Source: a bacterium | GTDB taxonomy: Bacteria > UBA8248 > JACPRG01 > G963555815 | Assembly: GCA_965218795.1 (NCBI GenBank) | Contig: OZ244653.1 | Location: forward strand, 3,456,001-3,520,000 | DNA length: 64,000 nucleotides | Direction of reading: 5' to 3' | Part shown: piece by piece, positions 5,228 through 55,192 of the stretch | Layout: each line of letters begins with the position of its first letter | Position numbering within the stretch: the first letter of the stretch is position 1 | Notes under the pieces: model-generated | The model's database searches: none | Told to the model about the DNA's origin: nothing | What the model saw: only the letters and a program-made list of their open reading frames with translations | Made by a program: the position numbers and the translations under genes

Positions 5228-5291
5228 TTTGAAAATCCGAAAAAGTTTGCCGCCGTCATCCGACCGCGCGAAGGGTCGGACCTCCGTTTCA

Positions 5292-5816
<525 letters not shown>

Positions 5817-5872
5817 TCATCTCTCCATCCGCTGTCCTCAGCAGCGCAAACGGCCGGGTCGATGAAATCGAC

Positions 5873-26268: not shown

Positions 26269-28050
26269 ATGCTCGACATTCGAAGGATCAGAGAGGAGAG
26301 CGAGAGCCTCCGGGAAGCCTTGGCCCGCCGGGGCGGCGCGCCCGACTTTGCGCCGATTCTGGAACGGGATACCCGCCGCCGGGCGGTGATCGCCGAGCTT
26401 CAGGCGCATCGCTCCAGACAGAAGGACCTTTCCAGGCAGATCGGAGACTTGAAACGGGAAGGGCGGGATGCCGAGCCGCTCATGGCCCAGGTGCGCGGCA
26501 TGGGCGACCGGATCGCTCCCCTGGAAAGGCAGGTCCGCGAAGAGGCGGAAGCCGTCCGGGGGATGATGCTGGATGTTCCCAACACCCCCCACCCGTCGGT
26601 TCCGGACGGCCGGGATGAGCGCTCCAACAGGGAGGTTCGGCGTTGGGGGTCTTCCCGCGCGTTCAACTTCCAGGCCCGCGATCACCTCGCTGTCGGCGAA
26701 AGCCTCGGCATCATCGATCTGCAGCGGGCGGCAAAGATTGCGGGCGCCCGCTTTCCCCTCATGATGGGCGCGGGCGCCGCGCTGGAGCGGGCCCTGCTGA
26801 ACTTCATGCTGGATCTCCATACCCGCCGGCACGGATATTACGAAGTTCTTCCGCCCTTCCTGGTCAACGCCGAGTCCGCGATCGGCACGGGTCAGCTCCC
26901 GAAATTCGAGGCGGATCTCTTTAAGACCGGAGAAGACGAACTTTACTTGACGCCGACGGCGGAGGTTCCCCTGGCCAACATCCACCGGGATGAAACCCTC
27001 CCCGAGCGGCTGCTCCCCGTCAAATTCACGGCCTTCACGCCCTGCTTCCGCCGGGAGGCGGGCTCGTATGGAAAAGAGACGCGCGGCCTGATCCGCCAGC
27101 ATCAGTTCGGCAAGGTCGAGCTGGTCAAGTTTACGTCCGCGGAAACGTCTTACGATGAGCTGGAGAGCCTCACGGCGGATGCCGAGGAGATCCTCCAGCG
27201 TCTGGAAATCCCGTACCGGGTAGTGGTTTTGTGCGCGGGGGACCTCGGTTTCAGCGCAGCGAAGACGTATGACATCGAGGTCTGGCTTCCTGCCAGGCAG
27301 GGCTACCTTGAAATTTCATCGTGCAGCAACTTCGAGGACTTCCAGGCCCGTCGGATCGGCGTCCGCTACCGCACCCAGGACGGCCGGACGAACTTCGCCC
27401 ACACGCTGAACGGCTCGGGGCTCGCCATTGGCCGGACGATCGTCGCTATCCTGGAGAACTTCCAGCAGCAGGACGGATCCGTCGAGATCCCCATGGTGCT
27501 TCGCCCATATATGGGCGGAATGGAAACCATCACGCGCGCCCGGGGACCTTGGATGACGAAGGGCGGAGCCCAGCCCTTGGTCAAGGTCTCGGAAGAGGCC
27601 GACAAAGAGCCGGGGAGCCAAGAGTCCTCCGGGGACGAAGAGGTCTCAGGGAGCAAGGAGGCCCCGGGAGGCGAAGAGGGCCGCGGGCGCCGCGGCAGGG
27701 GCCGAAGAGGGCGAAATCGGAAGGGCCGCGGCGGCCAGCGGGGCGACGGACAAGGGCAGGGCGAGCGCCGGGATTCGGGCGGACAGACCGGCGGCGAGCG
27801 CGGCCCCGAGGGCAATCAGGGAGAGGGCCGGCAACCCCAGGGCCATCGATCTGAAGGCGGCCGGCCCGGGCGCCAACGGCCCGCAGGCTCGCAGTCTGAG
27901 CCTCAACGATCCGGGGGCAGGCCGGAGCCGCGGTCAACCGAGTCGAAAGCGGCTTCCGACGGAGAATCGCCGTCCGGTCCCGGGGCGGAACGATCTCCGG
28001 GGTCCGGCCAGGAGGCCGGCCGGGTGGACAATCCCTCGCCCGGCCGCTAA
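26269..28050 (+). CDS. serS: Seryl-tRNA synthetase with ~165-aa disordered C-terminal extension
   Basis: PTAEVPL, FRREAGS, RQHQFGKVEL, EISSCSN, HTLNGSGLA; the core ends near PYMGG (~27520). Confidence 0.97.
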   Translation: MLDIRRIREESESLREALARRGGAPDFAPILERDTRRRAVIAELQAHRSRQKDLSRQIGDLKREGRDAEPLMAQVRGMGDRIAPLERQVREEAEAVRGMMLDVPNTPHPSVPDGRDERSNREVRRWGSSRAFNFQARDHLAVGESLGIIDLQRAAKIAGARFPLMMGAGAALERALLNFMLDLHTRRHGYYEVLPPFLVNAESAIGTGQLPKFEADLFKTGEDELYLTPTAEVPLANIHRDETLPERLLPVKFTAFTPCFRREAGSYGKETRGLIRQHQFGKVELVKFTSAETSYDELESLTADAEEILQRLEIPYRVVVLCAGDLGFSAAKTYDIEVWLPARQGYLEISSCSNFEDFQARRIGVRYRTQDGRTNFAHTLNGSGLAIGRTIVAILENFQQQDGSVEIPMVLRPYMGGMETITRARGPWMTKGGAQPLVKVSEEADKEPGSQESSGDEEVSGSKEAPGGEEGRGRRGRGRRGRNRKGRGGQRGDGQGQGERRDSGGQTGGERGPEGNQGEGRQPQGHRSEGGRPGRQRPAGSQSEPQRSGGRPEPRSTESKAASDGESPSGPGAERSPGSGQEAGRVDNPSPGR

Positions 28051-28109: not shown

Positions 28110-28201
28110 GGAGGGATGGCCGAGTGGTTGAAGGCGGCGGTCTTGAAAACCGTTAGGGGCCGAAAGGTCTCTCGGGGGTTCGAATCCCTCTCCCTCCGCC
28201 A
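28110..28201 (+). tRNA. tRNA-Ser(TGA)
   Basis: Acceptor stem GGAGGGA/TCCCTCC, anticodon arm GCGGT-CTTGAAA-ACCGT, long variable arm, GGTTCGAATCC, encoded CCA. Confidence 0.96.
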
Positions 28202-28348
28202 TGGCTCTTGGAGCGTTCCCGGAAAACATTCGCGCGTGATAACATTGGGCGATGGTTCTCGAAAAGGGGACGTTCGACTCGGGGATGATACGCTTGACTG
28301 GCCGGGGGGCCGGATTGAGCCTGTCCCCCGAAGGATTTCGCCGGGGAG

Positions 28349-28375
28349 TGGATTCCTGCTTGCGCAGGAATGACG
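28349..28375. repeat. CGTC-type REP-like palindrome (further copies 29921-29946, 30022-30047, 34074-34099)
   Basis: TGGATTCCTGCTTGCGCAGGAATGACG; family consensus GTCATTCCnGCnnnnGCnGGAATCCA. Confidence 0.8.
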
Positions 28376-28414
28376 AACAAGACCCTAAGGGCTACGAGGC
28401 CGCCCGGTTCGAAT

Positions 28415-28694
28415 GTAGGGGCGGGGGGGCCGGCCTCCGTACCCGCCCTTCAATGGCCGTCCTGCCCGGCCGAGCCTTGGCCTGCTCGCGGCGTTGGGCG
28501 GGTCCACTGCGCCACGGGTCTGCCGGCGCGGAACATGAACATGGGCAGTCCATCCGCTTTTTTGAGCGGAGAGGTGGCCGAGCGGCTGAAGGCGCTCGCC
28601 TGCTAAGCGAGTAGGGGGGGAAACCTCCCTCGAGGGTTCGAATCCCTCCCTCTCCGCCATGGCTTTTGGGGCGGGTACGGAGCCCCGCCCCTAC
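28415..28694. repeat. Inverted pair of GTAG-type REPs (28415-28449 and 28668-28694) enclosing tRNA-Ser(GCT)
   Basis: Both read GTAGGGGCGGGG...CTCCGTACCCGCCC, on opposite strands. Confidence 0.75.
28568..28659 (+). tRNA. tRNA-Ser(GCT)
   Basis: Anticodon arm CTCGC-CTGCTAA-GCGAG, long variable arm, T-loop, CCA. Confidence 0.96.
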
Positions 28695-28746
28695 ACTGGT
28701 TCGCTTGCAGCGATGAGACGGAAATCCGCCCCTTTGTTCTCAACGG

Positions 28747-29766
28747 TCAGGATCGGGTTTCCTGATCGGGGCAATCGGCGCGATGGTGCGCCGCGAGCGA
28801 GGCGCACATCTCGGCCAGCCGCCGGCGAAGGCCGGCCGGTCCCTCGACCGTAACGCTCCCTCCCCATGTCACGAGGTGCCAGAACATTTCCTCGATCCCG
28901 CCGGCCTTGAAGCGCACCGTCAGCGAACCGTCGCCGTTCTCCACGACGGTCTGGCCGGGATGGAACTGAAACGCCCTCGCATCCGGCGCCGCGCAGGTGT
29001 CGAAACGCAGCGCCACCTCGACCGGCTCCTCCTGGAAGGTGCCGAACGAACGCTCGGCGTAGCCCTGCAAGTCGAACGCCGGATCGCGCTCGAACGCTTC
29101 ATCGGCGATCCGGGCCTTGCTCACGTTCGCAAGCCGCCAAAGCCTCGTATCGTTCGCCCAGTCGGTCCGCCCCACCAGGAACGCGCGGTTGCCGTAGAGC
29201 ACCCCGTAGGGCTGGACGCGCTGGCGGCTCCGCTGTCCCGTCGACCGGGAGAGATAGTCGAACTCGATCGTGCGGCGCGCCTTGATGGCGTCGCGCACGA
29301 GCGGGAGCAGGCCCTCTTCGAGGTTTTGTTTCGGTCCGGGCCGCATCGCGAGCCCTTCCGCCTCCATGTGCGCCTCCAGAGCGGATTCGAATTCTTCGGG
29401 GGAGTGACCGCGCGATACGGCACGCAGCTTGGCGGCAAGCTCGCGGAGCCCGCCGGCGCGCTCGGCGAGGCCGGCGCGGTCCAGGCTCCCGGCCGCGGCT
29501 TCGAGTTCCGCCAACTCCTCGGGCGAGACGCGGATGAATTGGAGCAAGTCGGGCGACTGAAGCCGCCAGTGTTTTCGCCGGTCGCCGGTGTCCGCGTCCA
29601 CGGTTTCCAGCGGCCCGAATGCCTCCTCGACGGCATCGCGCATCCGCTCCGCCGTGCGCCGGCTGACGTTGAACTCGTCTTCTATGTCGGCGATGGTCAG
29701 GCCGCCCCGCACCCCCTGGAGGCGAATGGCCAGGCGCAAAAGGTTCTCAAGCCGCTCAAACCGCAT
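28747..29766 (-). CDS. HTH-WYL-WCX transcriptional regulator (PafC/DriD/YafY-like)
   Basis: wHTH (EFNVSRRTAERMRD), WYL domain (FDYLS..VQPYGV..AFLVG..RLWRLANV), WCX tail (LVTWGGSVTVEGP). Confidence 0.9.
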   Translation of the reverse strand: MRFERLENLLRLAIRLQGVRGGLTIADIEDEFNVSRRTAERMRDAVEEAFGPLETVDADTGDRRKHWRLQSPDLLQFIRVSPEELAELEAAAGSLDRAGLAERAGGLRELAAKLRAVSRGHSPEEFESALEAHMEAEGLAMRPGPKQNLEEGLLPLVRDAIKARRTIEFDYLSRSTGQRSRQRVQPYGVLYGNRAFLVGRTDWANDTRLWRLANVSKARIADEAFERDPAFDLQGYAERSFGTFQEEPVEVALRFDTCAAPDARAFQFHPGQTVVENGDGSLTVRFKAGGIEEMFWHLVTWGGSVTVEGPAGLRRRLAEMCASLAAHHRADCPDQETRS

Positions 29767-29843
29767 TCCGCTGCCTCCTCACAGAGCGGCCCGCCCCCCG
29801 CGGTCATCCCGCGAATGTCGGAGGACAACGTCGACCGCCGGAA

Positions 29844-29943
29844 GGTATTGCGTCACTCGAATGAGTCGAAGGACGGCAAAGTCCCGCTCCCGCGTTGCTC
29901 GGAATGTATTCGTCGAGAAATGGATTCCCGCGCAAGCGGGAAT
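29844..29943 (+). repeat. ~100-bp direct repeat, copy 1 (copy 2 at 33997-34096)
   Basis: GGTATTGCG..CTCGAATGAGTCGAAGGACGGCAAAGTC..CTCGGAATGTATTCGTCG.GAAATGGATT; 5 mismatches in the first ~83 bp. Confidence 0.92.
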
Positions 29944-30123
29944 CCAGGAAAAGGACCGCTTGACGAGGCGTCCCCAAACCACGCCCCCCCCGGCCCGTCC
30001 TTCCCGCGGGACCCCCGGTTTGTCATTCCCGCGGATGCGGGAATCCATTACGTTGCCCAGGGCCTCGGTCAGTTGCACGGCTCCCCCCTCTCTGTCCCCC
30101 GACTGAGACATTCGAGGGCAGGC

Positions 30124-30186
30124 ATCCGGGGGTTCTCCTCCCTCTTTGCGAGACATCATTCGTTCGGGAAGATACCTGGTCGTACA
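30124..30186 (-). mobile_element. Probable IS481-family end relic, homologous to 44283-44345
   Basis: Minus strand TGTACGACCAGGTATCTTCCCGAAC...GAACCCCCGGAT aligns with the left part of the IS481 relic at 44.3 kb and begins with TGT. Confidence 0.5.
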
Positions 30187-30187
30187 G

Positions 30188-31465
30188 CTAAAGCGTTTCT
30201 CCCCACGTTGCGAGGGCGCGCGCAAGCAAATCAAGGATTTTTTTCTCGAGCTCTCCGCTCTGCTCCAACCTGATCACTTCCTCGAGATCCCACTCATGAT
30301 AGATTTTGAACCCTGGGATGACGTTGATGTGATCCCGGTTCGTCTCAAGGAACTCAGCTTCGATCCCTTTCTTCTCCGAACTGATCAAGCCATCATTTAC
30401 CCACGAATCGAGTAGAGGCAGCAGTGTGGCGGGATTTGCTGGCTTGTGTTGCTTGGCTAACCCATCCGAGGCCAGGTCGAAGTACGCTTCGTTTTCTAGT
30501 TCTGTGTCGGCCCAGACCAACTTCTTACCCATGTAGGCAAAATGGAGATCTGGTACGATTTCCCATCCGTCCGCTGTAAGATTCAGAAACCTCTTCTTGT
30601 CAACTTTGTAGAAGTCTCTGGCTTGGGTGACGCTGCATCCCGGCCACAGAGCCATCTGGAGTTTCGGTTTCGATGTGTGATTTTTAATTATAAAGGCAAC
30701 TCTCTCAGCGATTTTCCCCGGACGATAGAGGTACCACCAGCCGCGATCTGTACCTGTATCGTACCAACATTCCAGATCGTCCTTGTCTCCCTTTAGCTCA
30801 TTTACCAGAAGGTTTGTCCGCTTCTTTAGTGCTTTAGGCCTGTTACCGCAGAGAGCGAATTTGCGGTAGGGGGTCAGCATAGGATGCTCCTTTTCCACAA
30901 GTGACAGGAAATCGTAGACGATCTCGCGGCTTCCGAAGGGCGCGACGCTGGAATCGGCGTACCTGAGCATACCTTCCAGGACTTCCGCCCACTCCAGGCA
31001 GATCGCCGACTCATGGAGCTTGACATCTTGGATGTCATCCGCCGGCAATGAATTCTTGCTCGGCGACAACTGTTCTTTCCGCACGCCGCCATGTTGGAGC
31101 TTGTTTTCGATTATCAACGTCAATCTGTTTGGGTATTCGACGACTCCGTCGTATCTGGCCTTACGGTCCGACCACTTCACCTCCACCGGCTTCTTAAGAT
31201 CCTCATCGGTGAGAAGGACCGAGATAAGAAGAGGCGGGGGTATTGCTATCCACTCAGTCTGTGTTGAAACGACTGCTGGCTCCCAGGTGACGCCGTTGTT
31301 CGAATTCTCCAGGGGGGCGCACCCCGCCTTCGCCAACACCATTTCACGCAAGAAGTTTTGAAGGCTCGAATCATACTTCAGGATCGAGAGGAACGCCCAG
31401 GTCAAGCGATCTTCGTGCTTGTTTGACTTCGGATAGAATGGATTGAACAGATTTACGCGGCCCAT
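30188..31465 (-). CDS. Putative PD-(D/E)xK-superfamily nuclease with unknown C-terminal domain
   Basis: HEDRLTWAF helix, RYDGVVE..IIENKL..EQL motif, visibly lower GC than its neighbours, SD AGGAG. Confidence 0.6.
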   Translation of the reverse strand: MGRVNLFNPFYPKSNKHEDRLTWAFLSILKYDSSLQNFLREMVLAKAGCAPLENSNNGVTWEPAVVSTQTEWIAIPPPLLISVLLTDEDLKKPVEVKWSDRKARYDGVVEYPNRLTLIIENKLQHGGVRKEQLSPSKNSLPADDIQDVKLHESAICLEWAEVLEGMLRYADSSVAPFGSREIVYDFLSLVEKEHPMLTPYRKFALCGNRPKALKKRTNLLVNELKGDKDDLECWYDTGTDRGWWYLYRPGKIAERVAFIIKNHTSKPKLQMALWPGCSVTQARDFYKVDKKRFLNLTADGWEIVPDLHFAYMGKKLVWADTELENEAYFDLASDGLAKQHKPANPATLLPLLDSWVNDGLISSEKKGIEAEFLETNRDHINVIPGFKIYHEWDLEEVIRLEQSGELEKKILDLLARALATWGETL

Positions 31466-31771
31466 TGGTCGTTCTCCTGTGAAGTTCTTGGTGTACAGAT
31501 AGAGTATTCACCTGACAGTCTGCGCTCCTGTTAGGGGTGGGTGGTTCAGGCGGCTTTTTTCATTTTTTCCTCCTTCGGTCTCTTGGGTTTTGGTAGGCAT
31601 CGGACGAAGACCTCTGCGGGTGTCCTTCCCCGCATGCCGCGGTCCTGCGTGGGGCCGTTTGGTCTTATAGATGTCGAGATACTTGCCCCCCAAAATGTAA
31701 AGCGTCACCGACGGTCAGATTTCTCGGTCTTTTCCAAAAAATATTTAAAACTTGTTTCACTCTGGTCGAGC

Positions 31772-33771
31772 TCACCTCCGAAAGCCCGCCGGCCCTGGAC
31801 GGTCCGGCTTGGCTTCGCATTCGGCGCGCAGCATTTTGGAGAGCGCCTGCGGGTCTTGCAGGCAGTCGAGGATCTCGGCTTTCCGGCGCACGACGGCGAA
31901 GTCGCCCGGGGTCAGGCCGGCAAGGCCCGCGACCGCGGCCGGGGGCGCAAGCGCGAAATAGGCCCGGAACGCCGCCGTCGCCTGTTCGGGGGAAAGGTAA
32001 TCGAACGCGATCTTGAAGGTGAAGCGACGCAGCGTTGCCGTGTCGAGACGTTCCCCGAAGTTGGTCGTGCAGGCGAAGGGCAGGGGGTGGCTTTCCATCC
32101 AGGTCAGCATTTCGTTGACCTGGCTGACCTCCCAGTTTCTCACGGCGAAGCGGCGGTCGGCGAGCAGGGAGTCGGCTTCGTCGAAGACCAGGAAAGCCTC
32201 CGCGTCGCGCGCCTCGGCGAAGGCCGCGGCGATCTCCTTTTCGGTCTCTCCGACAAACATCGACATCAGATCGGACGCCCGCTTTTGCATGGCCTCGAGG
32301 CCGAGCCGTTCGGCCAGGTGACGGACGAACGCGCTCTTCCCCGTGCCGGGCGGCCCTTGCAGGCAAAGCGAGAACCGCCGCGGGCCGCTTCCCGCGAGAC
32401 GGTCCGCGAGCGCGATCGGATCGACGTCGGCCCGGATCAGCGCGGGATCGAACCTCTCCGGCGTCCGTTGACGCGGCGGCGTCACGTCGGACTCCGCGCG
32501 GCGAGGGCGCGCGCTTCTTCTTCGTCCGCTTCGATGCCGTGATGCGCAAGCAGACGCGCCCAGATTCGCGTTCGGACCCGGGGCGGCGGCTGGCGCAGCT
32601 CCAGGGTGAACATCATGCGGCGCAGAAGGGCGGGGCAAGTCTGTCGGACGGCGTTCGAGGTCCACAGCGTGGGCACCGGAGCTTGTTCGAGAAGCCGGTT
32701 CATGAACACCTTCGAGCCTTCGGCCCGGCGTCCGGAGGATCGGAGCGGACCGAAAAACGCCGCCAGGCCGCCGCCCCCGTCGGAAAGCAGGTCTTCCATC
32801 TCGTCGAAAAGCAGGAGAGATCGGCGGCCCGGAGCCGTCAGGCGCTGGGCGAGCCGGAGTTCCTGAAGCCTCTCGCAGCGGGACGGCTCGCCGCCGTCGC
32901 TGTCCGATTCGCCGACGCTGTAGAGCGGCGCTCCCAGCCGGGCGGCCAGGGTCTTGCAGAACTCGGTCTTGCCGGTCCCCGGAGGTCCGTACACGAGGAC
33001 GTTCACGCCCGATTCGCCGGTTCGCAGAGCCCCTTTCAGTATCCGTTCGATGTGATCGCGGTCGTCGGCTATGTGGTCGAAATCCGACCAGTCGAGCTCG
33101 CCCGGACGCGCCTCGTCGAGCAGCAGGCGCTGCGCGTCCGAACCGGCGAGATCCGAAAGCGAGACCAGCCGATCCACCCGGCCGATGAGCGTCAGGTAAC
33201 CGTCGTCGTTGGATACGAGCCCCGATTTCACGAGCGGCGCGTCGGGCGCGAATCGGCTGAGGAGCGCGTTTTCCGATACGCCGAGGAAGCAGGACATCGC
33301 CGGGCTCCTGTCGTTGAGCAAAGCCCTCCGTAACGGATGACCGAATATGCTGTCCGCCATCGACTCGATGATCGGCAGCGTGCGGTAGCGCAGCATGAAC
33401 TCCAGGATCGCCGTATCCGTTCGAGAGAGACGCATCGCCTTTCCGAGATGCCGGAGCCGCCGCGCCGTCCGGTCCGGCCGCGCCCGCATTGCCGCCGTGT
33501 ATTCGTTCCCAAGGGCTTCTCCCAGACGCCGCCATTCCGGCGCGGGGACTCCCCTTTTGGGCCGTTCGTCTCCGAGCGCCGGCAGGTCTTCGAACGCCAG
33601 CTCGCTATTGGCCTCGTCGACCCAGCCCGCCAATTCTCCCGCCACCCGAGAACGGTGACGAAGGCGCGAGGCGGCGTTTGACAGGTAGAAGAGGGCGAGA
33701 CGGCGTTCGTAGGGGGCGAGCATGGCGTACTCCGTGTCCGTGGCTTGCATGAGTAAAGATAGGAAGGCCAT
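31772..33771 (-). pseudogene. Tandem (double) AAA+ ATPase, frameshifted near 32490
   Basis: ORF 32482..33771 carries AAA1 (YGPPGTGKT, LLLFDEMED). The frame of ORF 31772..33535 continues with AAA2 (QGPPGTGKS, FLVFDEADS, CTTN, TLRRF). Confidence 0.85.
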
Positions 33772-33789
33772 GCGTCAGATTCGGACGTA
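33771..33789. promoter_or_regulatory. Candidate WYL-regulator operator
   Basis: TGCGTC-N7-GACGTA pseudo-palindrome. On the minus strand it is followed by TATCTT (-10-like) and an ATG at 33750. Confidence 0.5.
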
Positions 33790-33823
33790 CTCAGGCGTAC
33801 TCACGAATATTTTTTTTGATCAG

Positions 33824-33994
33824 CAATGCGAGCCGGGCTCGGTCCGCGTATCGGCGTGATCTTCGACGGATTAAAGGGTTTGATTGTACGATGAGGAGGC
33901 GGCCCCATGGGGCCGCCTCCTCATCGTGAAACAAAAGTTTTCCTGGGGGTCCAGGGGGGCGGCTTTCAAAAAGCGCCCCCTGGATACTTGTCCT
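33824..33994 (+). repeat. Palindromic repeat element, copy A (contains perfect 40-bp palindrome 33888-33927)
   Basis: Hairpin + GAAACAAAAGTTTT + G/C-rich hairpin; deleted twin at 35012-35119. Confidence 0.9.
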
Positions 33995-33996
33995 GT

Positions 33997-34096
33997 GGTA
34001 TTGCGGCGCTCGAATGAGTCGAAGGACGGCAAAGTCGCGCTCCCGCGCTGCTCGGAATGTATTCGTCGGGAAATGGATTTCTGCTTGCGCAGGAAT
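33997..34096 (+). repeat. ~100-bp direct repeat, copy 2
   Basis: Matches 29844-29943. Confidence 0.92.
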
Positions 34097-34180
34097 GACA
34101 GAACAGGACCATGCAGACCGCGGCCTGGATTGGCGGCCCTGCCGAATCGTGTCTTTGGCCCGGCCTTGTTTCCGCATTTC

Positions 34181-34209
34181 TTGACATCCCCCGGGCCAGG
34201 GCTAAAAAT
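34181..34209 (+). promoter_or_regulatory. sigma70-type promoter for tRNA-Arg/tadA
   Basis: Perfect TTGACA, then TAAAAAT 16-17 bp later, ~40 bp before the tRNA. Confidence 0.6.
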
Positions 34210-34248
34210 AAATCCGCGTAATCACAGAAGATGGAAACTTTGAAACGC

Positions 34249-34325
34249 GCGCCCTTAGCTCAATTGGATAGAGCGTCGGACTACGGATCCGAAGGTTGGG
34301 GGTTCGACTCCCTCAGGGCGTGCCA
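34249..34325 (+). tRNA. tRNA-Arg(ACG)
   Basis: Anticodon arm TCGGA-CTACGGA-TCCGA, GGTTCGACTCC, CCA. Confidence 0.96.
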
Positions 34326-34333
34326 TTTTTGTT

Positions 34334-34831
34334 TTGGGACCCGATTTTCCAGTGCCTGAGCGCGATTCGGGCTGGATGCGCCGGGCCTTGGAGCTTGCCT
34401 GGGAGGCGGCCCGCGAAGAGGAAGTCCCGGTTGGGGCGGTCGTTGTTCTGGGCGATCGGGTCATCGCCGAAGGCCGGAACGAGGTCGAGGCGAGGGGAGA
34501 CCCGACCGCCCACGCCGAGTTTTTGGCCATCCAGCGGGCAGTAACGGAAACGGGGTATTCCCGCCTCGCGGGCGCGACGCTGTATTCGACGCTCGAGCCG
34601 TGCGCCATGTGCGCCGGGGCGGTCCTGCTGGCGCGGGTTTCCCGGCTGATCTTCGGCGCGCGGGATGAGAAGGGCGGCTGTTGCGGCAGTCTCTACGACC
34701 TTTTGACCGACGGGCGGTTCAACCACCGGGTCGAGGTTCAGGGGGGGCTGCTGGCCGATGAATCCGCCCGGCTGCTGCGGGACTTTTTCCGGCCGCGGCG
34801 AAAATCGGCTGGAAGCGGGAACGGGGGCTGA
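34334..34831 (+). CDS. tadA: tRNA-specific adenosine-34 deaminase
   Basis: EVPVGAV, HAE, TLEPCAMC and FFRPRR motifs. Confidence 0.95.
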   Translation: MGPDFPVPERDSGWMRRALELAWEAAREEEVPVGAVVVLGDRVIAEGRNEVEARGDPTAHAEFLAIQRAVTETGYSRLAGATLYSTLEPCAMCAGAVLLARVSRLIFGARDEKGGCCGSLYDLLTDGRFNHRVEVQGGLLADESARLLRDFFRPRRKSAGSGNGG

Positions 34832-34876
34832 CCATCGGTTCAAAGGCCCGGCCCAGGGGCATTGAGAGCGCTCGCC

Positions 34877-34966
34877 GGAGAGATGGCCGAGTGGTTGAAG
34901 GCGGTAGACTCGAAATCTACTGTACGGGCAACCGTACCGGGGGTTCGAATCCCTCTCTCTCCGCCA
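34877..34966 (+). tRNA. tRNA-Ser(CGA)
   Basis: Anticodon arm GTAGA-CTCGAAA-TCTAC, long variable arm, CCA. Confidence 0.96.
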
Positions 34967-35011
34967 AAGAATATATTGAGAAAAAGGATTTATCGTTGGG
35001 CGCACACGCCT

Positions 35012-35119
35012 CAATGCGAGCCGGGCTCGGTCCGCGCGTATCGGCGTGAGCTTCGACGGAGGGTTTGATTGTACGATGAGGGGGCGGCTTTCAAAAAGCG
35101 CCCCCTGGATACTTGTCCT
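35012..35119 (+). repeat. Palindromic repeat element, copy B (internal deletion of copy A)
   Basis: Same ends as 33824-33994; GATGAGG is joined directly to GGGCGGCTTTCAAAAAG. Confidence 0.9.
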
Positions 35120-35143
35120 TGAGAGTTCGCCGGATCCGGTTCG

Positions 35144-36817
35144 TCACGTCCTTCCTCTCCGGTGGGCGTTTTCGGCATCTTGGCTCGGATCGTGCGCGTA
35201 ATCCCGAAGGGCGCCCTCTTGTGAGACCAGTCCCTCCCGAAGGTCTTTCCGAACCGCCTCCGGCGGGCGGTCGCCGGGGGGAAGGTATCCTCCGCCTCCG
35301 GAAGTGACGAGCAGGAACTCATCGCCCGGTTGCAGGATGTATCTGCTTTTCGGATGAGGCCTGACGGAATCGTTGATGATGATTTCGGTTCGGGACCCGG
35401 GTTGGGCTCCCAACATCCCTTCGGCGGGATGATGAACCCTTTCGTAAAGACAGGACAGGCGGACGGGATGCTGCCCCCTAACGCAGCCGCCAACGCGCTG
35501 ACCCAGTCCTCCGCGATATCGTCCGGGGCCGCCGGAATCCACCGCGAGAGATTTTTCCGTGAACAGGATGGGGATTTCCTGCTCTGCAATCTCGATGGGG
35601 GTGTTGGCAACGTTTCCGGGAAACGAGACGGTCGCCTCGCCGTCTTTTCCGAGACGGGCGCCCCATCCGCCGCAGAGGAAACCGAGATAAGAAAATCTCT
35701 CTCCCCACCGGTTGATTCCATCCAGCTGCAGGTCCGAAAGAATCGAGCTGTCCGCCACCACGCGCTCCGCAGCCACGGATGCCAGACACCCGAAGACGGC
35801 CGAAGAGACGAAATAGCCGGTGAGATGCCGCGCCGAAACGGCGGCCGGATAGCTGGCGTTCAACAGGGACCCCTCCGGCGCCTTGAGGCGGACGTGCTGA
35901 AAGGCGCCCGCGTTATTCGGCAGCCCGGGAAACAGTGCGCACTTGATCGAATAGAACGTGTACGCGTATGTGTATGCAAAAGGGACGTTGATCCCCCGGG
36001 GCACCTGCGGGGACGTTCCCTCGTAGTCTACTTCGACTTCTTCCTTCTCTACTGTCACCGCAGCCTGGATGGTCAACGGCTCGTCGAACCCATCGATCCG
36101 GAGGGAATGGGTGTACCGGCCCCGGGGAATCCGCGAGATGGATTCACGGGCGGCATGGGCGGTCCGTGAAAAGATTTCATCCGAAACCTCGGACAGATCC
36201 TTGATGGCGAACTCCTTCACGAATGCGATGAGCTTTTCTCCGCAGACCGCATTGGATGCCGCCAGCGCCCGGATATCCCCCAGGACGGCGCGAGGGACCC
36301 TGGTGTTCTCTCTCAGGATCTCGAATAGATCTTCGTTGGGCCGGCCGGCGCGGTAGAGCTTCAGGATGGGAACGGCCAGGCCCTCCTCGAATACTTCCCG
36401 CGCATCGGCCGAGAACACGTTCCCGCCGATGTCCACGACGTGGCCGGTGCTCCCGGAATAGCCGAGGATCTCATTTCTGTGGAAGACCGGCGTCACCACG
36501 GTCATGTCGTGCTTGTGCCCGGTTGCTTTCCAGGGATCGTTCGTGATGAGAACGTCTCCCGGCTCCAGCGTTTCGGGCGGAAACCGCTTCAGGAAATGAC
36601 CGACGGCCAAGGCCAGGGTGTTGATATGACCCGGCGTTCCGGTATCCGCCTGGACAATCATCCGGCCCCGCCGGTCGAAGACGGCGCAGGATAGGTCTTC
36701 CGCTTCACGAAGCACCGGGGAGAAGGCCGATCGGACCAAAGCGCGGGCCTGGTCGTTGGCCATGGATATCAGCCTCGTCCACAAAAGCTCCAAACGGATG
36801 GCATCCGAAACGGTCAT
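35144..36817 (-). CDS. Hydantoinase B / oxoprolinase family protein
   Basis: SAFSPVLREAEDLS, TNDPW..TGHKHD, HVVDIGG, DSGGPGRYRGGLG, GGGGY. Confidence 0.92.
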   Translation of the reverse strand: MTVSDAIRLELLWTRLISMANDQARALVRSAFSPVLREAEDLSCAVFDRRGRMIVQADTGTPGHINTLALAVGHFLKRFPPETLEPGDVLITNDPWKATGHKHDMTVVTPVFHRNEILGYSGSTGHVVDIGGNVFSADAREVFEEGLAVPILKLYRAGRPNEDLFEILRENTRVPRAVLGDIRALAASNAVCGEKLIAFVKEFAIKDLSEVSDEIFSRTAHAARESISRIPRGRYTHSLRIDGFDEPLTIQAAVTVEKEEVEVDYEGTSPQVPRGINVPFAYTYAYTFYSIKCALFPGLPNNAGAFQHVRLKAPEGSLLNASYPAAVSARHLTGYFVSSAVFGCLASVAAERVVADSSILSDLQLDGINRWGERFSYLGFLCGGWGARLGKDGEATVSFPGNVANTPIEIAEQEIPILFTEKSLAVDSGGPGRYRGGLGQRVGGCVRGQHPVRLSCLYERVHHPAEGMLGAQPGSRTEIIINDSVRPHPKSRYILQPGDEFLLVTSGGGGYLPPGDRPPEAVRKDLREGLVSQEGALRDYAHDPSQDAENAHRRGRT

Positions 36818-36873
36818 CCGACTCTCTCGTTCAAGCGAAGGGAACCCTCGGCGTCCCAGCCAATTGCGGGACG

Positions 36874-38957
36874 CTAACCAAGGGTGACGACAACGTTCAT
36901 GGCAGGGTCGATCTCGATTTCCGAACGATCCCCGATGGTGATTGTAGATTCCCGTTCCTCGATGATGGCCGGGCCCTTGAAGCGATTCCCGGGAAGGAGG
37001 CGGTATTGGTCGTAGATCGGGCAGGATTGGAAGCCCGTCTCTTCCCCGAGAAAGGCATCGCGCGCCTCCTTGGACGCTTCGGGAAGGGGCGCGGCGGCGG
37101 CGGTTTCCGGAAGCGTGCGCTTTGGGATATCCTCCGCGCGGCCCGTTACCCTCACCCGCCAGGTCAGGACCTCGACTTCGCAGTCCTCGTTGGCCACGTG
37201 GTAGATGCGCGTGTACTCCCGTTCATAGCGGTCGCGCAGGTTCTCCGGATCCAGCAGATCCGCCGGGTTCTCCGGAAGCTCTACGGTGATCTCATGGCCC
37301 TGACCGACATAGCGCATGTCGGCCGTGTGCCGGACGGTCGCGGCCTTTGAAACAACTCCCTGGCGGGCCACAGGGTTCGAATGGCCTCCTCCGTCATTTC
37401 CTCCAACAGAGCCCTGATCGCGGCTTCATCGAATTCCGTCAATCGTATCGGGTACGTACGGACCAGATCAAAGGCGGGGGGCGCCACGAGAAACCCCAGA
37501 GCCGAGAGCACCCCAGAAGACGCGGGAAACGCCACGCGGGCGAGCCCCAGGCTGCGCGCCAAACCGTGGGCATGCACCGGACCCGCGCCCCCGAAAGCAA
37601 TCATCGTGAGCCCGTTGAGCGTCCACCCTCTCTCGGTTCCATGAAGCCGTGCGGCTCCCGCCATGTGTTCATTGACGATTTGGTGAATTCCCCATGCGGC
37701 CTCCTCGGTGGTCAGGCCAAGGGGCCGGGCGACCCATTCATTGATGGCGCGTTGCGCCTTATCGGGAAACAGATGGAGCCTGCCGCCGAGAAAAAAATCC
37801 GGATTCAGATATCCCAAGACCAGATCGGCGTCCGTCACGGTGGGTTCAATTCCCCCTCGCCCATAGCAGGCCGGCCCGGGGTCCGCGCCCGCGCTGTCCG
37901 GACCGACTTTCAGCAGGCCCATGGAATCCGTCCGGGCGATGCTGCCGCCTCCCGCCCCCACCTCCACAAGATCGATGACCGGAATGCGGATCGGGAGCCC
38001 GCTGCCCTTTTTGTGGCGGTAGGTTCGCGCCACTTCGAACTCATTCGTCCGGAGCGGCTCGCCATCTCCGATGAGACACAGCTTCGCCGCCGTCCCGCCC
38101 ATGTCGAAAGAAAGGGTTTTGTCCCATTCCAGCGAGCGCGCGATCTGCGCCGCTCCGAAGGCCCCGGCTGCCGGTCCGGATTCCACCACGCGAATGGGAT
38201 ATTTCTCGGCCGTGTTCACCGATGTAATTCCCCCGCTCGACAGCATCACCGCCATCGGATTGCGGACCCCCCGGATTCGAATCTCTTCTCCCAACCGCGA
38301 AAGATAGTTTTTCAGCACAGGACGGGCATAAGCGTTGGCGGCTGTGGTCGAGACCCTTTCGAATTCGCGGATCTCAGGAAGGACATCCGAGGAGAGGGAA
38401 ACGAAGAGTTCCGGTTCCGATTCTCCGATGCGGCCGACCGCACGTTCGTGAAGCGGGTTTCGGTACGCGTGCAGGAAGCAAACCGCAAGACTTTCGATCC
38501 CCTCCTTCCGAAATTCGGCCAGGGCCCTGCCGACTTCTCCCTCGTCGAGGGGCACGACAATCTCCCCTTTTTCGTCGATGCGCTCGGACACTTCTCTTCG
38601 CAGCGCGCGGGGAATCAGGGGTTTTGGCATTTCAAGGAAGAGATCGTACATGTCGAACCGGCGCTCGCGGCCGATTGCGAGGAGGTCCCTGAAACCGCGC
38701 GTTGTCAGCAGGGCCGTCTTTGCGCCCTTCCGTTCGATGAGGAGGTTCGCCACAAGGGTTGTTCCGTGAATGGCGGTCGAAACCAGGGAGGATTCAACGT
38801 TGGCGGCCTCCAGGACTTCGTCCACTCCCGCAACCGCTCCCTGGACGGGATCCTCAGGCGTCGTCAAGGTTTTCCATATGTGGACGCCGCCGGTCTCATC
38901 GTCGCGCAGGACGATGTCGGTAAAGGTGCCCCCTATGTCGATTCCCATCCTGAACAT
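36874..38957 (-). pseudogene. Hydantoinase A / oxoprolinase family protein, frameshifted near 37372
   Basis: ORF 37281..38957 (GIDIGGTFTD, ESGPAAG, DMGGT, GAGGGS) continues in ORF 36874..37371 (ADMRYVGQGHEI, GPAIIEERES). Confidence 0.88.
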
Positions 38958-38990
38958 GGGCTTTCCTTGAGCCCCCTTCCGCTTTCCCGC

Positions 38991-40115
38991 TTAGGGCAGG
39001 GCGGACAGAAAGGCTTCCACCTCATTGAGGGTGTTATAGCAATGGGGCGAGACCCGGACGTGGTCCAACCGTGTCATGACGTGGATATCGGCCGCTTCCA
39101 GCGCCCCGCCAATTTCTTTGGTCGAAATCTCCGGATGCCGGAAACAGATGATGCCCGACCATCCCCCGGGCTCCCGCGGGCTGATCGAAGCATACCCCCT
39201 CCCTTCCAGCCCTTCGGCGATGCGGTCCGTCAGGATTTTCACCTGCTCCGTCACGGCCGGAAGACCGATTTCCAGCAGGAGCTGAACGGCCGCATCGAAC
39301 CCGATGATTCCCGTAAGGTTTTCGGACCCTCCTTCGAATCGCTTGGCGGTCGGAAGGGGGGTCAGATCGTATTGGAGGGGATCCGGGTGCCGGCGGACGC
39401 TCTTCCACCCAATCTGGCGGAGTTTCAGCCTGTCCAGAAGGTCCCTCCGGCAATAGAATCCTGACGTTCCATGCAGCCCCAACAACCATTTGTGGCCGCT
39501 ACAACTCAAGAAATCGATGCATTGCCTGCGGACATCCACCTCCAGAACCCCAAGTCCCTGGATGGCGTCCACGCAAAAATAGATTCCCCGCTCTCGGCAG
39601 AGGCGGCCGATGGCCTCGAGATCGTTCCGCCAGCCATTGAAGAACTCCACGAAACTCAACGCCACTACGCGTGTCCGCTCATCCAGCCTGCGTTCGATGT
39701 CCTCGGGCGTGATTCGCCCATCTCGCGCCGGAACAAATCGCGTTTCCACCCCCTGACTTTCAAGGTTCAGCCATTGAAGCGCATTGCTTGGAAACTCGAG
39801 CTCGGCAGAAACCACGTTATCGCCTTGCGACCATTCGAGCCCCTGCGCAACGGCCGCAATTCCTTCCGTTGTGTTCTTCAGAAAGGCGATCTCTTCGGGA
39901 TCCCCGCCGATCATCCGGGCACAATGTGCTTTGGCTTCGGTTTCGATGCGTTCCTCCCAGCGCGCATACGCCCGATTTCCCCCTTCGACCATCTCGGCAA
40001 GAAAGGTCTGGATTGACTCCCGTACCCGGAGAGATGGCGGGGCCACTGATGCGTGGTTGAGGTAGATCAGCTTGCGGGTGATCGGAAAAAGCTTCCGAAT
40101 CTCGTCCAGTGTCAT
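38991..40115 (-). CDS. Class-V PLP-dependent enzyme (aminotransferase V / C-S lyase-like)
   Basis: YLNHAS, DAIQGLG, SGHKWLLG (PLP lysine), RVSPHCYN; no IscS/SufS catalytic-Cys loop. Confidence 0.88.
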   Translation of the reverse strand: MTLDEIRKLFPITRKLIYLNHASVAPPSLRVRESIQTFLAEMVEGGNRAYARWEERIETEAKAHCARMIGGDPEEIAFLKNTTEGIAAVAQGLEWSQGDNVVSAELEFPSNALQWLNLESQGVETRFVPARDGRITPEDIERRLDERTRVVALSFVEFFNGWRNDLEAIGRLCRERGIYFCVDAIQGLGVLEVDVRRQCIDFLSCSGHKWLLGLHGTSGFYCRRDLLDRLKLRQIGWKSVRRHPDPLQYDLTPLPTAKRFEGGSENLTGIIGFDAAVQLLLEIGLPAVTEQVKILTDRIAEGLEGRGYASISPREPGGWSGIICFRHPEISTKEIGGALEAADIHVMTRLDHVRVSPHCYNTLNEVEAFLSALP

Positions 40116-40650
40116 GAAGCGTCCGCCTATTTTCCCAAGGATGGAGACACGCTACCGCCTGGCTTTCCAATCGACTTGCCCCCTGTCCCGAAGGGCCAAA
40201 AGCGCTTGATTTGCCTGGTCCTGATCCACAGGGGCACATTTTGTTGGCCGGGGGACCGGGGGATCTCCGTCTCCGTGACCCAATGAAGTTGTAACACGGT
40301 TTCAGGGCTTCCTGGTGTTACCTCCATAAATTTTGCGCAGAAATCAAAGTTGCTCAAAAGGCTTGCATTTTCTGGATTTTTCCTTATTTCGAATTGATTT
40401 TCATGATCCGAGAGGAATTCCCTTTTCTGTTGACCATCCTTGCGATTCGTTGGCCGACGCTCGAAATTAGTGATAAATTGTCGAGTCTGATAAACACCTC
40501 GGCAACCGGTGACTGCTAAGAATTCAACTCGAAAAATGGAGTGGTTCCGGCAGACCTCGAGCCAGGTTGTTTTGTGGGGCGTGATTCAAGGGTTGACCGG
40601 AGCACAGCCGAATAAAGCGCCTCTGTTCGCATGGATGCAGAAATTGCTTC

Positions 40651-40742
40651 GGAGAGATGACCGAGCGGCTGAAGGTGCACGACTGGAAATCGTGTAGGGG
40701 GGGAAACCTCCCTCGAGGGTTCGAATCCCTCTCTCTCCGCCA
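40651..40742 (+). tRNA. tRNA-Ser(GGA)
   Basis: Anticodon arm CACGA-CTGGAAA-TCGTG, long variable arm, CCA. Confidence 0.96.
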
Positions 40743-40751
40743 AAAATTCAA

Positions 40752-41029
40752 GTGGGTCGTGCTAGGCGGGGCGTTAGCGGTGCCCTGTCGCCCGAAATCC
40801 GCTACATGCGGGGCTGAATTCCCCACAGCGGCCGGGCCGCACGGTTGGATGTCTCCCGGACGGGAGGCGTTGAGGGCTGGGTCTTGTGCGACGGGCGCCT
40901 GTGAACCCCGTCAGGTCCGGAAGGAAGCAGCGGTAAGCAACGTGTCCCGTGTGCCGCAGGGCTGCCTGGCCTGAGCCGATCGTCCTGGACGCCGCCGGAC
41001 GGGGCGGTCAATGTGGGGTGCACGACCAC
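40752..41029 (+). ncRNA. ffs: Large (Alu-domain-containing) bacterial SRP RNA
   Basis: 5' CGTGCTAGGCGGGG..TAGCGGTGCCCTGT..AATCCGCT resembles B. subtilis scRNA. Helix 8 TCAGGTCCGGAAGGAAGCAGC; closing stem GGTCGTGC/GCACGACC; upstream of dnaX. Confidence 0.93.
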
Positions 41030-43315: not shown

Positions 43316-43379
43316 TGTTTGGCGCACGACCTGAATCACTGGAAAAGCGGCTGGAACGGGAGGAGGCAGTAAAGAATCC

Positions 43380-43650
43380 CAGGGGGACATTTTGAAAACT
43401 GTCCCCCTGAGAACCCCCTCGAAAACTTTTGTTTCACCATAAGGGCTGCCCCTGCGGAGCAGCCCTTATGGTATGAAATGGGTCACTTGGCAGGATGCTG
43501 CGTCTGCCGCTGGACACGTAATGTCCAAGGCAAACGGGCATCCTGCCAAAACGGGTGTTCCGTGCAGAATAGCGGTCCATCAGCTAACATCCAAGCGGCG
43601 CGGGCAGGCCGGGGGCCAAAGGCTCGGCTGTCAAAAGCTTTTAAAAGGGC
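43380..43650 (-). repeat. ~270-bp palindromic repeat element, copy C (inverted twin of copy D)
   Basis: Reverse complement of 46172-46442, roughly 90% identical by eye. Confidence 0.93.
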
Positions 43651-46130: not shown

Positions 46131-46443
46131 AACCCCTTGGGGGAGCTTTTTGGAAAAAGTTCCCCCAAGCCCCCTTAAAAACCTTTGACGGCCGAGCCTT
46201 CGGCCCGGCCTGCCCGCGCCGCCTGGGTGTTAGCTGATGGACCGCTATTCTGCGCGGAACACCCGTTTGGGCGGATGCCCGTTTGCCTTGGACATTACGT
46301 ATCCGGCGGCAGGCGCAGCATCCTGCCAAGCAACCCATTTCATACCATCAAGGGCTGTCCCGCAGGGGCAGCCCTTGATGGTGAAACAAAAGTTTTCGAG
46401 GGGGGTTCTCGGGGGGACAGTTTTCAAAATGTCCCCCCGAGAT
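46131..46443 (+). repeat. Palindromic repeat element, copy D (full unit with two outward-facing cores)
   Basis: Core AAAG(G)TTTT-GGGGG..GGGGG-TTTT/AAAA-CCCCC at both ends in inverted orientation. Confidence 0.93.
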
Positions 46444-53491: not shown

Positions 53492-55192
53492 TCAACTTCC
53501 GCCGGCGAAACGCCACTTCTCCGCGTTCCAGGTGATGGGCGTGTTGGTCCCGGTGGGTTTCCAGTTGAGGAACCTTGGGGTGGTCACGGAGACCTCAACG
53601 TGGAAGTAGAGAGGAATGGCGGGGAGCTCTTCGGTCCAGATTTCCTGCTCCTTTTGAAACAGCTTGAACCGTTTCATCTTGTCGATGGTCGCGGGAATCA
53701 AATGATTGAGGCGGGAGATTTCCTCGTGGACGAAGCCCGAAGTGTTCTGCCCCTGCCAGTTGTTTTTTTCGGAGGGTATGTTCTTGATGGTCCAGACGTT
53801 CTCGCCGTCCGAGGAAGGGTTGAGAACCCATGAGTACATGGCCAGATGGGGAAATTTTCGGTAGCGGACCGTGTCCGAGAAGAACACCTTGGCGGGTTGG
53901 TTCCGGAGGGTCACCTCGATGCCGGCCTTCCGCCAGTCGGACCGGATGATCTGCTGGACCTTCTCGCGCAGCTTGTCGCCCGAGGTCGTCATCAGCACCA
54001 GGCGCAGCTCTTTGCCGTCGGAGTCTCTGCAGATGCCGTTCGGCCCGGGCTCCCATCCGGCTTCCTTCAATAATTTTCTGGCGCGCTCCAGGTCATAGGC
54101 GTATTTCTTCGCATCGGGGTTGTACCCGTAGTGTTTCGCCGGCAGCCAGGTATGGGCCATCTCCTGCTTGCCTTCAAAGAGGGCTTTCACGATCCCCTCT
54201 CGGTTCGTGGCGTAGAGCAAGGCCTGCCGAACCCGCTTGTCGTTCAGGAGGGGGGATTGGGTGTTGACGTCCATGTGTTCCCAGTACATGCCCGGCGTGA
54301 AGTAAATTTTGAATTTCTTGCCGCGGCGCTTTTGGATGTCGAGGCCCTGGTCCAGCGAGAACCCGATCGGCGAGATGGCGTGAATGGCGTTGGAGGCGAG
54401 ATTGGCCTCGAGCGTGCCCGTGTTGGGGATGATCTTGTAAATGACCCGCTCGAAGTGGGGCGGGTCTCCCGGGTAATGGGGATTTCTCTCCAGGACCAGA
54501 TGGTTGCCCGGCTCCCAGTCTTTGAGGCGATAGGGACCGTTGGCAATCGGTTTTGTGTTGAAGAAACTCCCCCTGTACTTCTTCGGGCCCTGTTTCAGGA
54601 TGGGTGCGAGGACGTGTTTCGGCAGGGGATAATGGACGTCTTCATTCGCGCGATAAAAGCGTTCCTTCCAGTACACGACCAGGGTGTAAGGGTCCGGCGC
54701 TTCCATCCGCTCGATCCGGCGGTCGATGTCTCTTGTGATCACCGGCATGCCCTTGGTCATAATGGCTTTGTGGGCGAAGATGAAATCCTCGGCGGTGACA
54801 GGGACGCCGTCTTCCCACTTGAAACCCTTTTTGAGTTTCCACGTCGTTTTCATTCTGCCCTCGGGCAGCAGCTCAATACCGCCGTTTTCGAAGGTGGGGA
54901 TTTCTTCGGCCATCACGGGGCGGAGCTTGAGCGAGTCGTCCCGCATCAGAAGCGAACGGAAGATGGCCCCTCGGATCTCGATGCCCGCCAGCATCTCGCC
55001 GAACATCGGATCCAGGCTGTCCGGCTCCTGGGCGATTCCGACGATGACTTCTTTTTCGGCTTCAGACCCCGGATTGCCCGGCTCATCGCCCCCGCACCCG
55101 GCTGTGAATCCGATAATCAGGACGGTTAAGCAGTGGAAAAGTTTGCGCAACGTTGCCCTCCCGGTGCCTGGGGAATTCGAGATGCGTACCAC
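53492..55192 (-). CDS. Peptide ABC substrate-binding lipoprotein (family 5)
   Basis: Lipobox TAGC, QEPDSLDP, NGPYRL, RVRQAL, ELPAIPLY. Confidence 0.93.
   Translation of the reverse strand: MVRISNSPGTGRATLRKLFHCLTVLIIGFTAGCGGDEPGNPGSEAEKEVIVGIAQEPDSLDPMFGEMLAGIEIRGAIFRSLLMRDDSLKLRPVMAEEIPTFENGGIELLPEGRMKTTWKLKKGFKWEDGVPVTAEDFIFAHKAIMTKGMPVITRDIDRRIERMEAPDPYTLVVYWKERFYRANEDVHYPLPKHVLAPILKQGPKKYRGSFFNTKPIANGPYRLKDWEPGNHLVLERNPHYPGDPPHFERVIYKIIPNTGTLEANLASNAIHAISPIGFSLDQGLDIQKRRGKKFKIYFTPGMYWEHMDVNTQSPLLNDKRVRQALLYATNREGIVKALFEGKQEMAHTWLPAKHYGYNPDAKKYAYDLERARKLLKEAGWEPGPNGICRDSDGKELRLVLMTTSGDKLREKVQQIIRSDWRKAGIEVTLRNQPAKVFFSDTVRYRKFPHLAMYSWVLNPSSDGENVWTIKNIPSEKNNWQGQNTSGFVHEEISRLNHLIPATIDKMKRFKLFQKEQEIWTEELPAIPLYFHVEVSVTTPRFLNWKPTGTNTPITWNAEKWRFAGGS

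Follow-up and report, generated by a model that had tools for sequence, protein, structure and literature searches.

A probable composite of a decaying DriD-type WYL–ATPase module and a stand-alone candidate nuclease between two bacterial tRNA genes

Three co-oriented minus-strand genes, coding for a tandem AAA+ ATPase, an uncatalogued protein of 425 amino acids (aa) and a transcription factor with a winged helix-turn-helix (wHTH) followed by WYL and WCX domains, lie between the genes for tRNA-Ser(GCT) and tRNA-Arg(ACG) in the bacterial DNA analysed here (contig OZ244653.1, positions 3,456,001 to 3,520,000; 64,000 nucleotides (nt), hereafter the window). An earlier reading of the letters (the original prediction) had given the extent of the locus and the domains of these genes, which our analysis bore out, and had proposed that they form a dedicated system. 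Taken together, the three genes do not make up a new system. With a probability of about 0.7 we read the locus as a composite whose two parts move independently: a decaying ATPase module of the DriD type and, inserted into it, a stand-alone candidate defence nuclease, both of which seem to be undescribed. The first part would be a two-gene module, present in many phyla, of a WYL activator of the DriD type and, behind a DriD operator, a tandem AAA+ ATPase resembling CDC48/p97; the second would be a methyltransferase-less PD-(D/E)xK nuclease with a C-terminal domain of a DNA-sensing type, placed between the two genes. Independent acquisition, which the original prediction had entered as a caveat, is the better reading. 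The operator precedes the ATPase gene and not the nuclease gene, and the nuclease is found mostly alone.

The WYL regulator, its operator and the tandem ATPase

The regulator shows the wHTH, helical bundle, WYL and WCX layout along its full length. Comparison by phmmer aligned it to structures of DriD from Caulobacter crescentus (PDB 8TP8, 9PFQ, 7TZV) in one stretch, residues 1-320 (E 1.2e-52, 182 bits), and to PafC only at E 1.7e-6. The recognition-helix residues R37, E40 and R41, with which DriD reads DNA bases (PMC10853764, partial text), are identical here at the same numbering and are kept in 118-119 of 120 homologues. Nine contacts of DriD to single-stranded DNA (ssDNA) are given in the accessible part of PMC9186387 (Y168, S172, R178, Y192, K202, R204, W206, Y240 and R288); five are identical in the window protein and two are changed from Tyr to Phe, whereas the contacts of K202 and R288 are lost, with Asp and Glu in their places. 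This homology places the protein in the DriD clade of nucleic-acid-sensing regulators, the kind to which the original prediction had assigned it, and by analogy with DriD it is predicted to bind its operator and activate transcription in dependence on ssDNA. BrxR and CapW, which are repressors, and DdaA, an activator, are likewise wHTH-WYL-WCX proteins that lie beside defence genes and use a palindromic operator. However, no BrxR or CapW chain was among the six structure matches of the window regulator at E 0.01, and neither BREX nor CBASS genes are its neighbours. DdaA activates repair and defence genes through the motif CGWCA-N5-TGWCG (PMC12392091, partial text), which has the same form as the operator described below.

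The original prediction had overlooked an operator of the DriD type in front of the ATPase gene. The form published for DriD is CGXC-N7-GXCG (PMC10853764, same part of the text), and the site at 33771-33789 fits it. In a separate 12-position pattern it is the only site in the window to score at least 11; window 33771-33790 agrees with the 20-bp didA site at 16 of 20 positions, the best value in the 64 kb (next best 14). In DriD promoters the site takes the place of a −35 element and keeps a constant distance to the −10 (PMC13004042, partial text), and the didA promoter sequence printed there has an xAxxxT hexamer at the same spacing from the operator as the TATCTT of the window. The window has this arrangement in common with DriD: the operator comes shortly before a −10-like hexamer, and a clear −35 is lacking. 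The 12-position score was defined after operator-like sites had been seen, and the counts were redone using only the motif as published. In the 120 nt before the ATPase start CGNC-N7-GNCG was found for 12 of 18 genes (1.9 expected) and CGWC-N7-GWCG for 10 of 18 (0.30 expected), the promoters being those of the window, locus L003 and 16 plasmid loci, with estimated starts in unannotated loci. Upstream of nuclease genes the same motifs occurred at 3/22 (1.8 expected) and 1/22 (0.20 expected). No site of 10 or more of the 12 positions precedes the nuclease or WYL gene in the window, the best before the nuclease scoring 9, and there is no second strong operator in the 64 kb.

These operators lead us to predict that mobile DriD-like proteins have tandem-ATPase genes as a conserved target. 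The window regulator would differ from DriD in this target, as it differs in its variable island and in having no operator before its own gene. In Caulobacter the divergently oriented neighbour of driD codes for an unknown protein, together with a TonB-dependent transporter (PMC12340889); this transporter operon ruled out the gene beside driD as a counterpart of the ATPase.

The pairing of ATPase and regulator was followed in a plasmid collection, where 18 records had the ATPase and 16 loci were examined, two Ralstonia near-copies being left out. In 12 of the 16 loci a WYL gene was no more than two genes from the ATPase; in one it was 4 kb away, and in three there was none within 6 kb. Six of these WYL genes were of the DriD clade. 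In four co-oriented loci the WYL gene starts 33-49 nt past the ATPase stop, compared with 2,005 nt in the window. Thirteen of 119 close ATPase homologues were found on a contig exactly equal in size to that of one of 119 WYL proteins (0.1 expected). Some of these contigs measured 5-24 kb, and the pairwise identities within these 13 pairs were correlated (Spearman 0.64, permutation p 0.003), although kin are not independent. The same test gave no case for nuclease and ATPase and one for nuclease and WYL, on a contig of 1,553 nt, which is too short for both genes. The pairing is one-way, since of 49 plasmid records that encode a DriD-like WYL protein only 6 have the ATPase next to it. Since the CGWC motif precedes 10/18 ATPase genes and WYL is near in 12/16 plasmid loci, the comparison points to WYL, operator and CDC48-like tandem ATPase as the conserved unit, accompanied by variable neighbours that are often other nucleases. 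The control of defence islands by WYL proteins is already known (PMC9122601, PMC12392091, each in part), and the accessible parts of PMC12392091 and PMC9122589 make no mention of this ATPase. We found no description of the ATPase–WYL pairing in listings and abstracts of the open-access literature, where a mention in supplementary tables is possible.

The neighbours bear on whether such a module might serve repair. It could act in SOS-independent repair of DNA or RNA damage, in the manner of the DriD regulon, with the nuclease as a selfish or neutral passenger; this proposal overlaps with the composite reading and differs in purpose only. DriD targets include recA, recJ, dnaG, didA and bapE (PMC9186387, partial text). 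Besides genes for DUF2779, PDDEXK_4 and PLD-helicase proteins, the plasmid loci carry AddAB-like helicase-nuclease, ADP-ribosylglycohydrolase, macrodomain, RtcB, SbcCD and Y-family polymerase genes, which would suit repair, but they also carry BREX-2, Tiamat, PDC-M27, PDC-S26-like, HEPN, Sir2 and toxin-antitoxin genes. Moreover, the window holds no second strong operator and so gives no sign of a repair regulon that spans the chromosome. We regard a repair purpose as rather unlikely. The neighbourhoods are of a defence- or stress-like kind, in agreement with the setting originally proposed.

The ATPase gene is broken into two frames, each with a PF00004 domain, and spans 33723 (the likely start, also used in P0121) or 33771 (start of the longest open reading frame (ORF)) to 31772. 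The original prediction had reported the frameshift as its lesion, and this was found again, but it is not the sole one. Our comparison set held 119 homologues, 108 of at least 670 aa, and against the 109 that aligned to both pieces a median of 35.3 residues was missing at the junction. The approximately 36 missing residues are helical sequence after the first AAA core (the lid of the first AAA domain) and are present in 108/108 full-length homologues. The deletion stands in two records, for P0122, which is 96-98% identical (96% between the C-terminal piece and P0122 residues 314-546), shares it yet reads through in frame; the window therefore adds a net shift of 2 nt, in a short CG run. The copy is thus damaged twice, by the lid deletion and by the frameshift. 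Two other window genes are also split between frames, those for hydantoinase/oxoprolinase A (36874-38957, break near 37350) and for a peptide-binding (solute-binding) protein (55245-56913, break near 56250; intact paralogue at 53492-55192), and so the frameshift may be either an assembly error or real decay.

The nearest solved relatives of the ATPase are VAT/p97 chains (E 1e-21), which puts it in the classical AAA clade of the CDC48/p97/VAT-type tandem ATPases; from this clade it is predicted that it probably remodels protein or nucleoprotein complexes. The family has at least 2,283 matches and no curated name, and phage sequences gave one partial match. The N-terminal residues, about 240, resemble sequence clusters of which one has a winged-helix family in 11% of its members, which we take as a lead only. 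Profile searches were headed by IetA (84 bits) and CDC48 (57 bits). In the comparison with IetAS the best match, IetA/IteA, reached 87 bits against a cut-off of 510, and IteA has one domain in 370 aa whereas the ATPase has two AAA domains and the N domain. No S8 protease partner was found in the window or annotated in the plasmid ATPase loci, and membership of IetAS was rejected on the profile score and the missing protease.

The 425-aa protein and its neighbourhoods

The 425-aa protein probably is a PD-(D/E)xK nuclease, as had been proposed. The D..ENK..QL motif of the original prediction (D106..E120-N-K122..Q132-L133) is kept in 144-147 of 147 aligned sequences, with E18, D106 and K122 in all 147 and E120 in 146. 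In structure models with a predicted local distance difference test (pLDDT) score of 90 and 92, E18 starts the first helix and D106 and E120 lie on successive strands, which gives the E..D..(D/E)xK arrangement of a helix and adjacent strands. Conservation and fold searches suggest a nuclease domain at about residues 13-200, followed by a YktB/DUF1054/MotA-CTD-like domain at about 200-425. The latter fold is common to secretion chaperones, frataxin and YbjN and therefore proves no function; McrB-N and SRA/PUA sensors were absent among the fold matches listed (50 for McrB-N).

The family comprises 818 clusters at 50% identity. The protein had no match in Pfam, PADLOC or NCBIfam, and none at E 0.1 in Pfam and PADLOC; none of its homologues matched in Pfam (110 tested) or PADLOC (19 tested). 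The nuclease profile found no solved structure by sequence at E 10, and Foldseek searches of the Protein Data Bank with the whole protein and with its N domain gave no match at E 0.001. PDDEXK_4 (PF14281)/PDC-S26 proteins have the common motif order E(helix)..D..ExK..QL and are encoded by solo genes of about 400 aa, and genes of this family also occur beside the same ATPase. They differ in the C-terminal domain, the profile match to the 425-aa family covers 33 columns only, and one PDDEXK_4 sequence compared with the nuclease profile gave a wrong-register match of 0.4%; with no score above the family cut-off, membership was rejected. Unlike McrBC and the END nucleases, the protein has neither a GTPase nor an iEndoIII domain. 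A type II restriction-modification system was also rejected, since no cognate methyltransferase was found in the window or in 21 genome loci of relatives; the one methyltransferase in those loci is paired with its own ThaI-family endonuclease. Sensor nucleases that lack a methyltransferase are already known (PMC12191111, partial text). Listings and abstracts of the open-access literature held no description of the 425-aa family, supplementary mention being possible.

These 21 loci hold relatives 33-54% identical to the window nuclease, and the scan of their genes covered 145 called genes and 40 of 55 extra ORFs. GC content of the nuclease gene is below that of its flanks in all 21, by at least 0.05 in 19. 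In several loci it stands as a single insertion inside housekeeping runs (pheA/hisC, hemC/argH, tal/lpd), and in about half of them defence, toxin-antitoxin or mobile genes adjoin, among them genes for Sir2 with prokaryotic Argonaute (pAgo), a type I restriction subunit, AbiEii, a PDC-M23B helicase and integrases. In L016 (6696-9871) a co-oriented pair of Sir2 and short pAgo lies directly upstream of the nuclease. In two Acidobacteria, L007 (9783-11224) and L012 (8208-9589), the nuclease lies 124-202 nt past tRNA-Ser(CGA), without ATPase or WYL; the Arg(ACG)-tadA-Ser(CGA) cluster there is the one also found at the border of the window island. No plasmid or phage sequence matched the nuclease.

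The same loci bear on the idea that the three components form a dedicated system, with the ATPase driving or licensing the 425-aa nuclease under WYL control. Pairs of ATPase and nuclease are a common defence design, and co-orientation and gene order in the window would fit it, as would ATPase homologues near the nuclease in 3 of the 21 loci. However, those three, all in Latescibacterota, are on the opposite strand and two are truncated; WYL genes in two of them are only 26-27% identical and belong to another clade. No locus has the trio or a DriD-clade WYL gene, and no member of the 425-aa family occurs in the 16 plasmid ATPase loci. The GC mismatch and the doubly damaged ATPase also speak against it. 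In a tree of 34 rows (L021 left out as frameshifted) the window nuclease forms a group (97/92) with P0002, P0003 and L020, a solo copy on a long branch, away from the three copies adjacent to an ATPase; three changes are needed to account for the label 'near ATPase'. Repeated arrival beside the ATPase suggests a common preference for defence hotspots, or capture as cargo. The dedicated trio is by these neighbourhood counts largely refuted, and we hold it to be very improbable. The trio has no catalogue match in PADLOC 2.0, NCBIfam or Pfam, in line with the statement of the original prediction that it is no named system.

A looser form of the originally proposed ATPase/nuclease link did survive, though not for this nuclease: when DUF2779 and TM0106 are counted, 11 of 16 plasmid loci carry a PD-(D/E)xK-type or RecB-like gene at a distance of no more than about 4 kb from the ATPase. 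Two plasmids have the order ATPase-DUF2779-WYL, the same as in the window with a middle protein unrelated to the 425-aa family, and in L004 a PDDEXK_4 gene is directly downstream of the ATPase. Such loci could mean that WYL, operator and ATPase form a damage- or phage-induced promoter module that selects for nuclease cargo, with the 425-aa gene as functional cargo expressed by read-through in the way of DUF2779 or PDDEXK_4 genes elsewhere. The ATPase lesion might then not matter. Of the parts present here the ATPase alone is damaged, and the nuclease, the regulator and the operator are all intact; since no terminator-like site was found between ATPase and nuclease, the nuclease may be induced in this way. 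On the other side, the nuclease gene here lacks its own operator and is separated from the ATPase by 306 nt, and the gene mostly stands alone; the idea that DUF2779 is a nuclease depends on a weak match of its N-terminal 220 residues to a Cas4/RecB-type profile (E about 1e-6 to 1e-7), with no solved relative; and general clustering of defence genes accounts for the same counts. We consider such an expression platform unlikely. DUF2779 proteins stand beside the ATPase in L027 (7845-9347) and L028 (7861-9360), and also in L024 and L026. We found no paper on WYL with DUF2779 in the open-access literature, and ATPase-DUF2779-WYL is a compact candidate system.

Layout of the locus and its repeats

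The coordinates are given in Table 1. GC is 0.67-0.69 in the ATPase pieces and 0.68 in the WYL gene, 0.60 in the whole window, and falls within 50 nt of the ATPase stop. The lower GC of the 425-aa gene and the spacers of 300-400 nt were correctly described at the outset; the spacers measure 306 nt (ATPase-nuclease) and 421 nt (nuclease-WYL).

Table 1. Features of the island and its borders (window coordinates)
Feature	Position	Strand	Remarks
tRNA-Ser(GCT)	28568-28659	+	Left boundary; 3' end faces WYL stop, 87 nt apart
DriD-clade wHTH-WYL-WCX transcription factor, 339 aa, intact	28747-29766	-	Pfam WYL, WCX; weak HTH
REP/MITE-like DNA	29844-30047		114-nt repeat copy (29844-29957) and further REP palindrome (30022-30047)
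Uncatalogued 425-aa protein, intact, GC 0.52	30188-31465	-	Probable N-terminal PD-(D/E)xK domain; C-terminal YktB/DUF1054/MotA-CTD-like domain
Tandem AAA+ ATPase, C-terminal piece (second AAA domain)	31772-32494	-	PF00004, E 4e-22; out of frame with N-terminal piece
Tandem AAA+ ATPase, N-terminal piece, 413 aa	32482-33723	-	Possible winged-helix N domain and first AAA domain; ends at deletion/frameshift junction
Candidate −10 hexamer TATCTT	33756-33761	-	9 nt after operator; proposed from reading the sequence
DriD-type operator	33771-33789		Palindromic half-sites, 7-nt spacer; 47 nt upstream of likely ATPase start (33723)
Two repeat units	33824-34110		Dispersed MITE-like unit and second copy of REP-containing 114-nt repeat (33997-34110)
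tRNA-Arg(ACG)	34249-34325	+	Right boundary; then TadA-like deaminase gene and tRNA-Ser(CGA)

The two flanking tRNA genes are on the strand opposite to the three genes. The original prediction had these genes interrupt a tRNA-Ser(GCT)/tRNA-Arg(ACG) cluster; their position between the two stands, and that an ancestral pair was interrupted can be presumed only, because no second copy of a tRNA 3' end is present (the terminal 17 nt of tRNA-Ser(GCT) match only the four tRNA-Ser genes) and seven query proteins gave no integrase or transposase match. The locus was therefore rejected as a tRNA-targeted integrative element, and a 20-nt likeness to a tRNA T-arm at 30126-30145 was judged to be chance.

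The repetitive extragenic palindromic (REP) sequences and the direct repeat reported around the genes are both present. REP-type palindromes have four matches in the 64 kb, all inside 28349-34099, with none expected. The direct repeat, two 114-nt copies 85% identical, does not bound the trio as had been supposed, since it brackets only ATPase and nuclease with the WYL gene outside, carries a REP palindrome within and has a third, partial copy at 28337-28384. A second dispersed family, resembling miniature inverted-repeat transposable elements (MITEs), occurs at 33824-33994, 35012-35119, 43372-43452 and 46365-46438, with a hairpin of 29-nt arms at 33879-33936. The relic of an insertion-sequence end claimed earlier was not recovered: three intergenic stretches gave only short weak matches in the plasmid collection (at most 54 nt, E at least 0.03).

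The four tRNA-Ser genes (TGA, GCT, CGA, GGA) all lie within 13 kb downstream of serS, at 28110-40742, a region that also holds tRNA-Arg(ACG) and tadA, and a large signal recognition particle (SRP) RNA follows at 40757-41025; an Rfam scan of the window found tRNAs and SRP RNA and nothing else. The serS ORF (26269-28050) has a low-complexity C-terminal extension of about 165 aa, rich in G, R, E and Q. At 1-8000, not far from the origin region (dnaA at 18217, gyrB, gyrA), ORF starts suggest an operon for a V/A-type ATP synthase.

Proposed action of the two parts

If the regulator acts as DriD does, ssDNA from damage or invading DNA would bind its WYL domain, and the activated dimer would bind the operator at the −35 position and recruit RNA polymerase. 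The ATPase, a probable ring-shaped protein remodeller, would be induced together with downstream defence or repair genes. The module appears to be decaying in this genome, where the ATPase is frameshifted and lacks part of the first lid, while regulator and operator are intact. The nuclease would most likely be a restriction-like defence enzyme acting alone on foreign, possibly modified DNA; it may be induced by read-through. Its insertion into what we infer to have been an existing ATPase–WYL pair would mirror its insertion at many unrelated sites.

In locus L003 an operator-like palindrome of 19 bp with the core CGAC-N7-GTCG occurs five times (7323, 9815, 11329, 14775 and 16342) and divides a run of defence and toxin-antitoxin cassettes; two of the copies overlap the stop of a WYL gene or of a duplicated WCX remnant, and similar junctions occur in L004 and L005. 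The pattern suggests that cassettes were captured repeatedly at the 3' end of the WYL gene. As these palindromes separate the cassettes, capture at the operator is possible, and a speculative and only tentatively held extension is that the DriD-type regulator and p97-like ATPase, with a winged-helix N domain, form a widespread ssDNA-triggered landing pad for swappable effectors, perhaps gained by cassette capture at operator sites, and that the 425-aa family are nucleases of modified phage DNA with a McrB-N-like C-terminal sensor. If so, PD-(D/E)xK, DUF2779, Sir2, ADP-ribosylglycohydrolase, Tiamat and PLD-helicase effectors would be placed under damage control.

With its damaged ATPase, the copy in the window is ill suited to testing. 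The 425-aa protein stands for a single-gene family of predicted nucleases that is uncatalogued and would be cheap to test on phages. DriD has so far been studied as a chromosomal regulator of DNA damage; the operators predict a concrete conserved target for its mobile relatives, and the 19-bp site makes a link from ssDNA sensing to the induction of defence islands testable.

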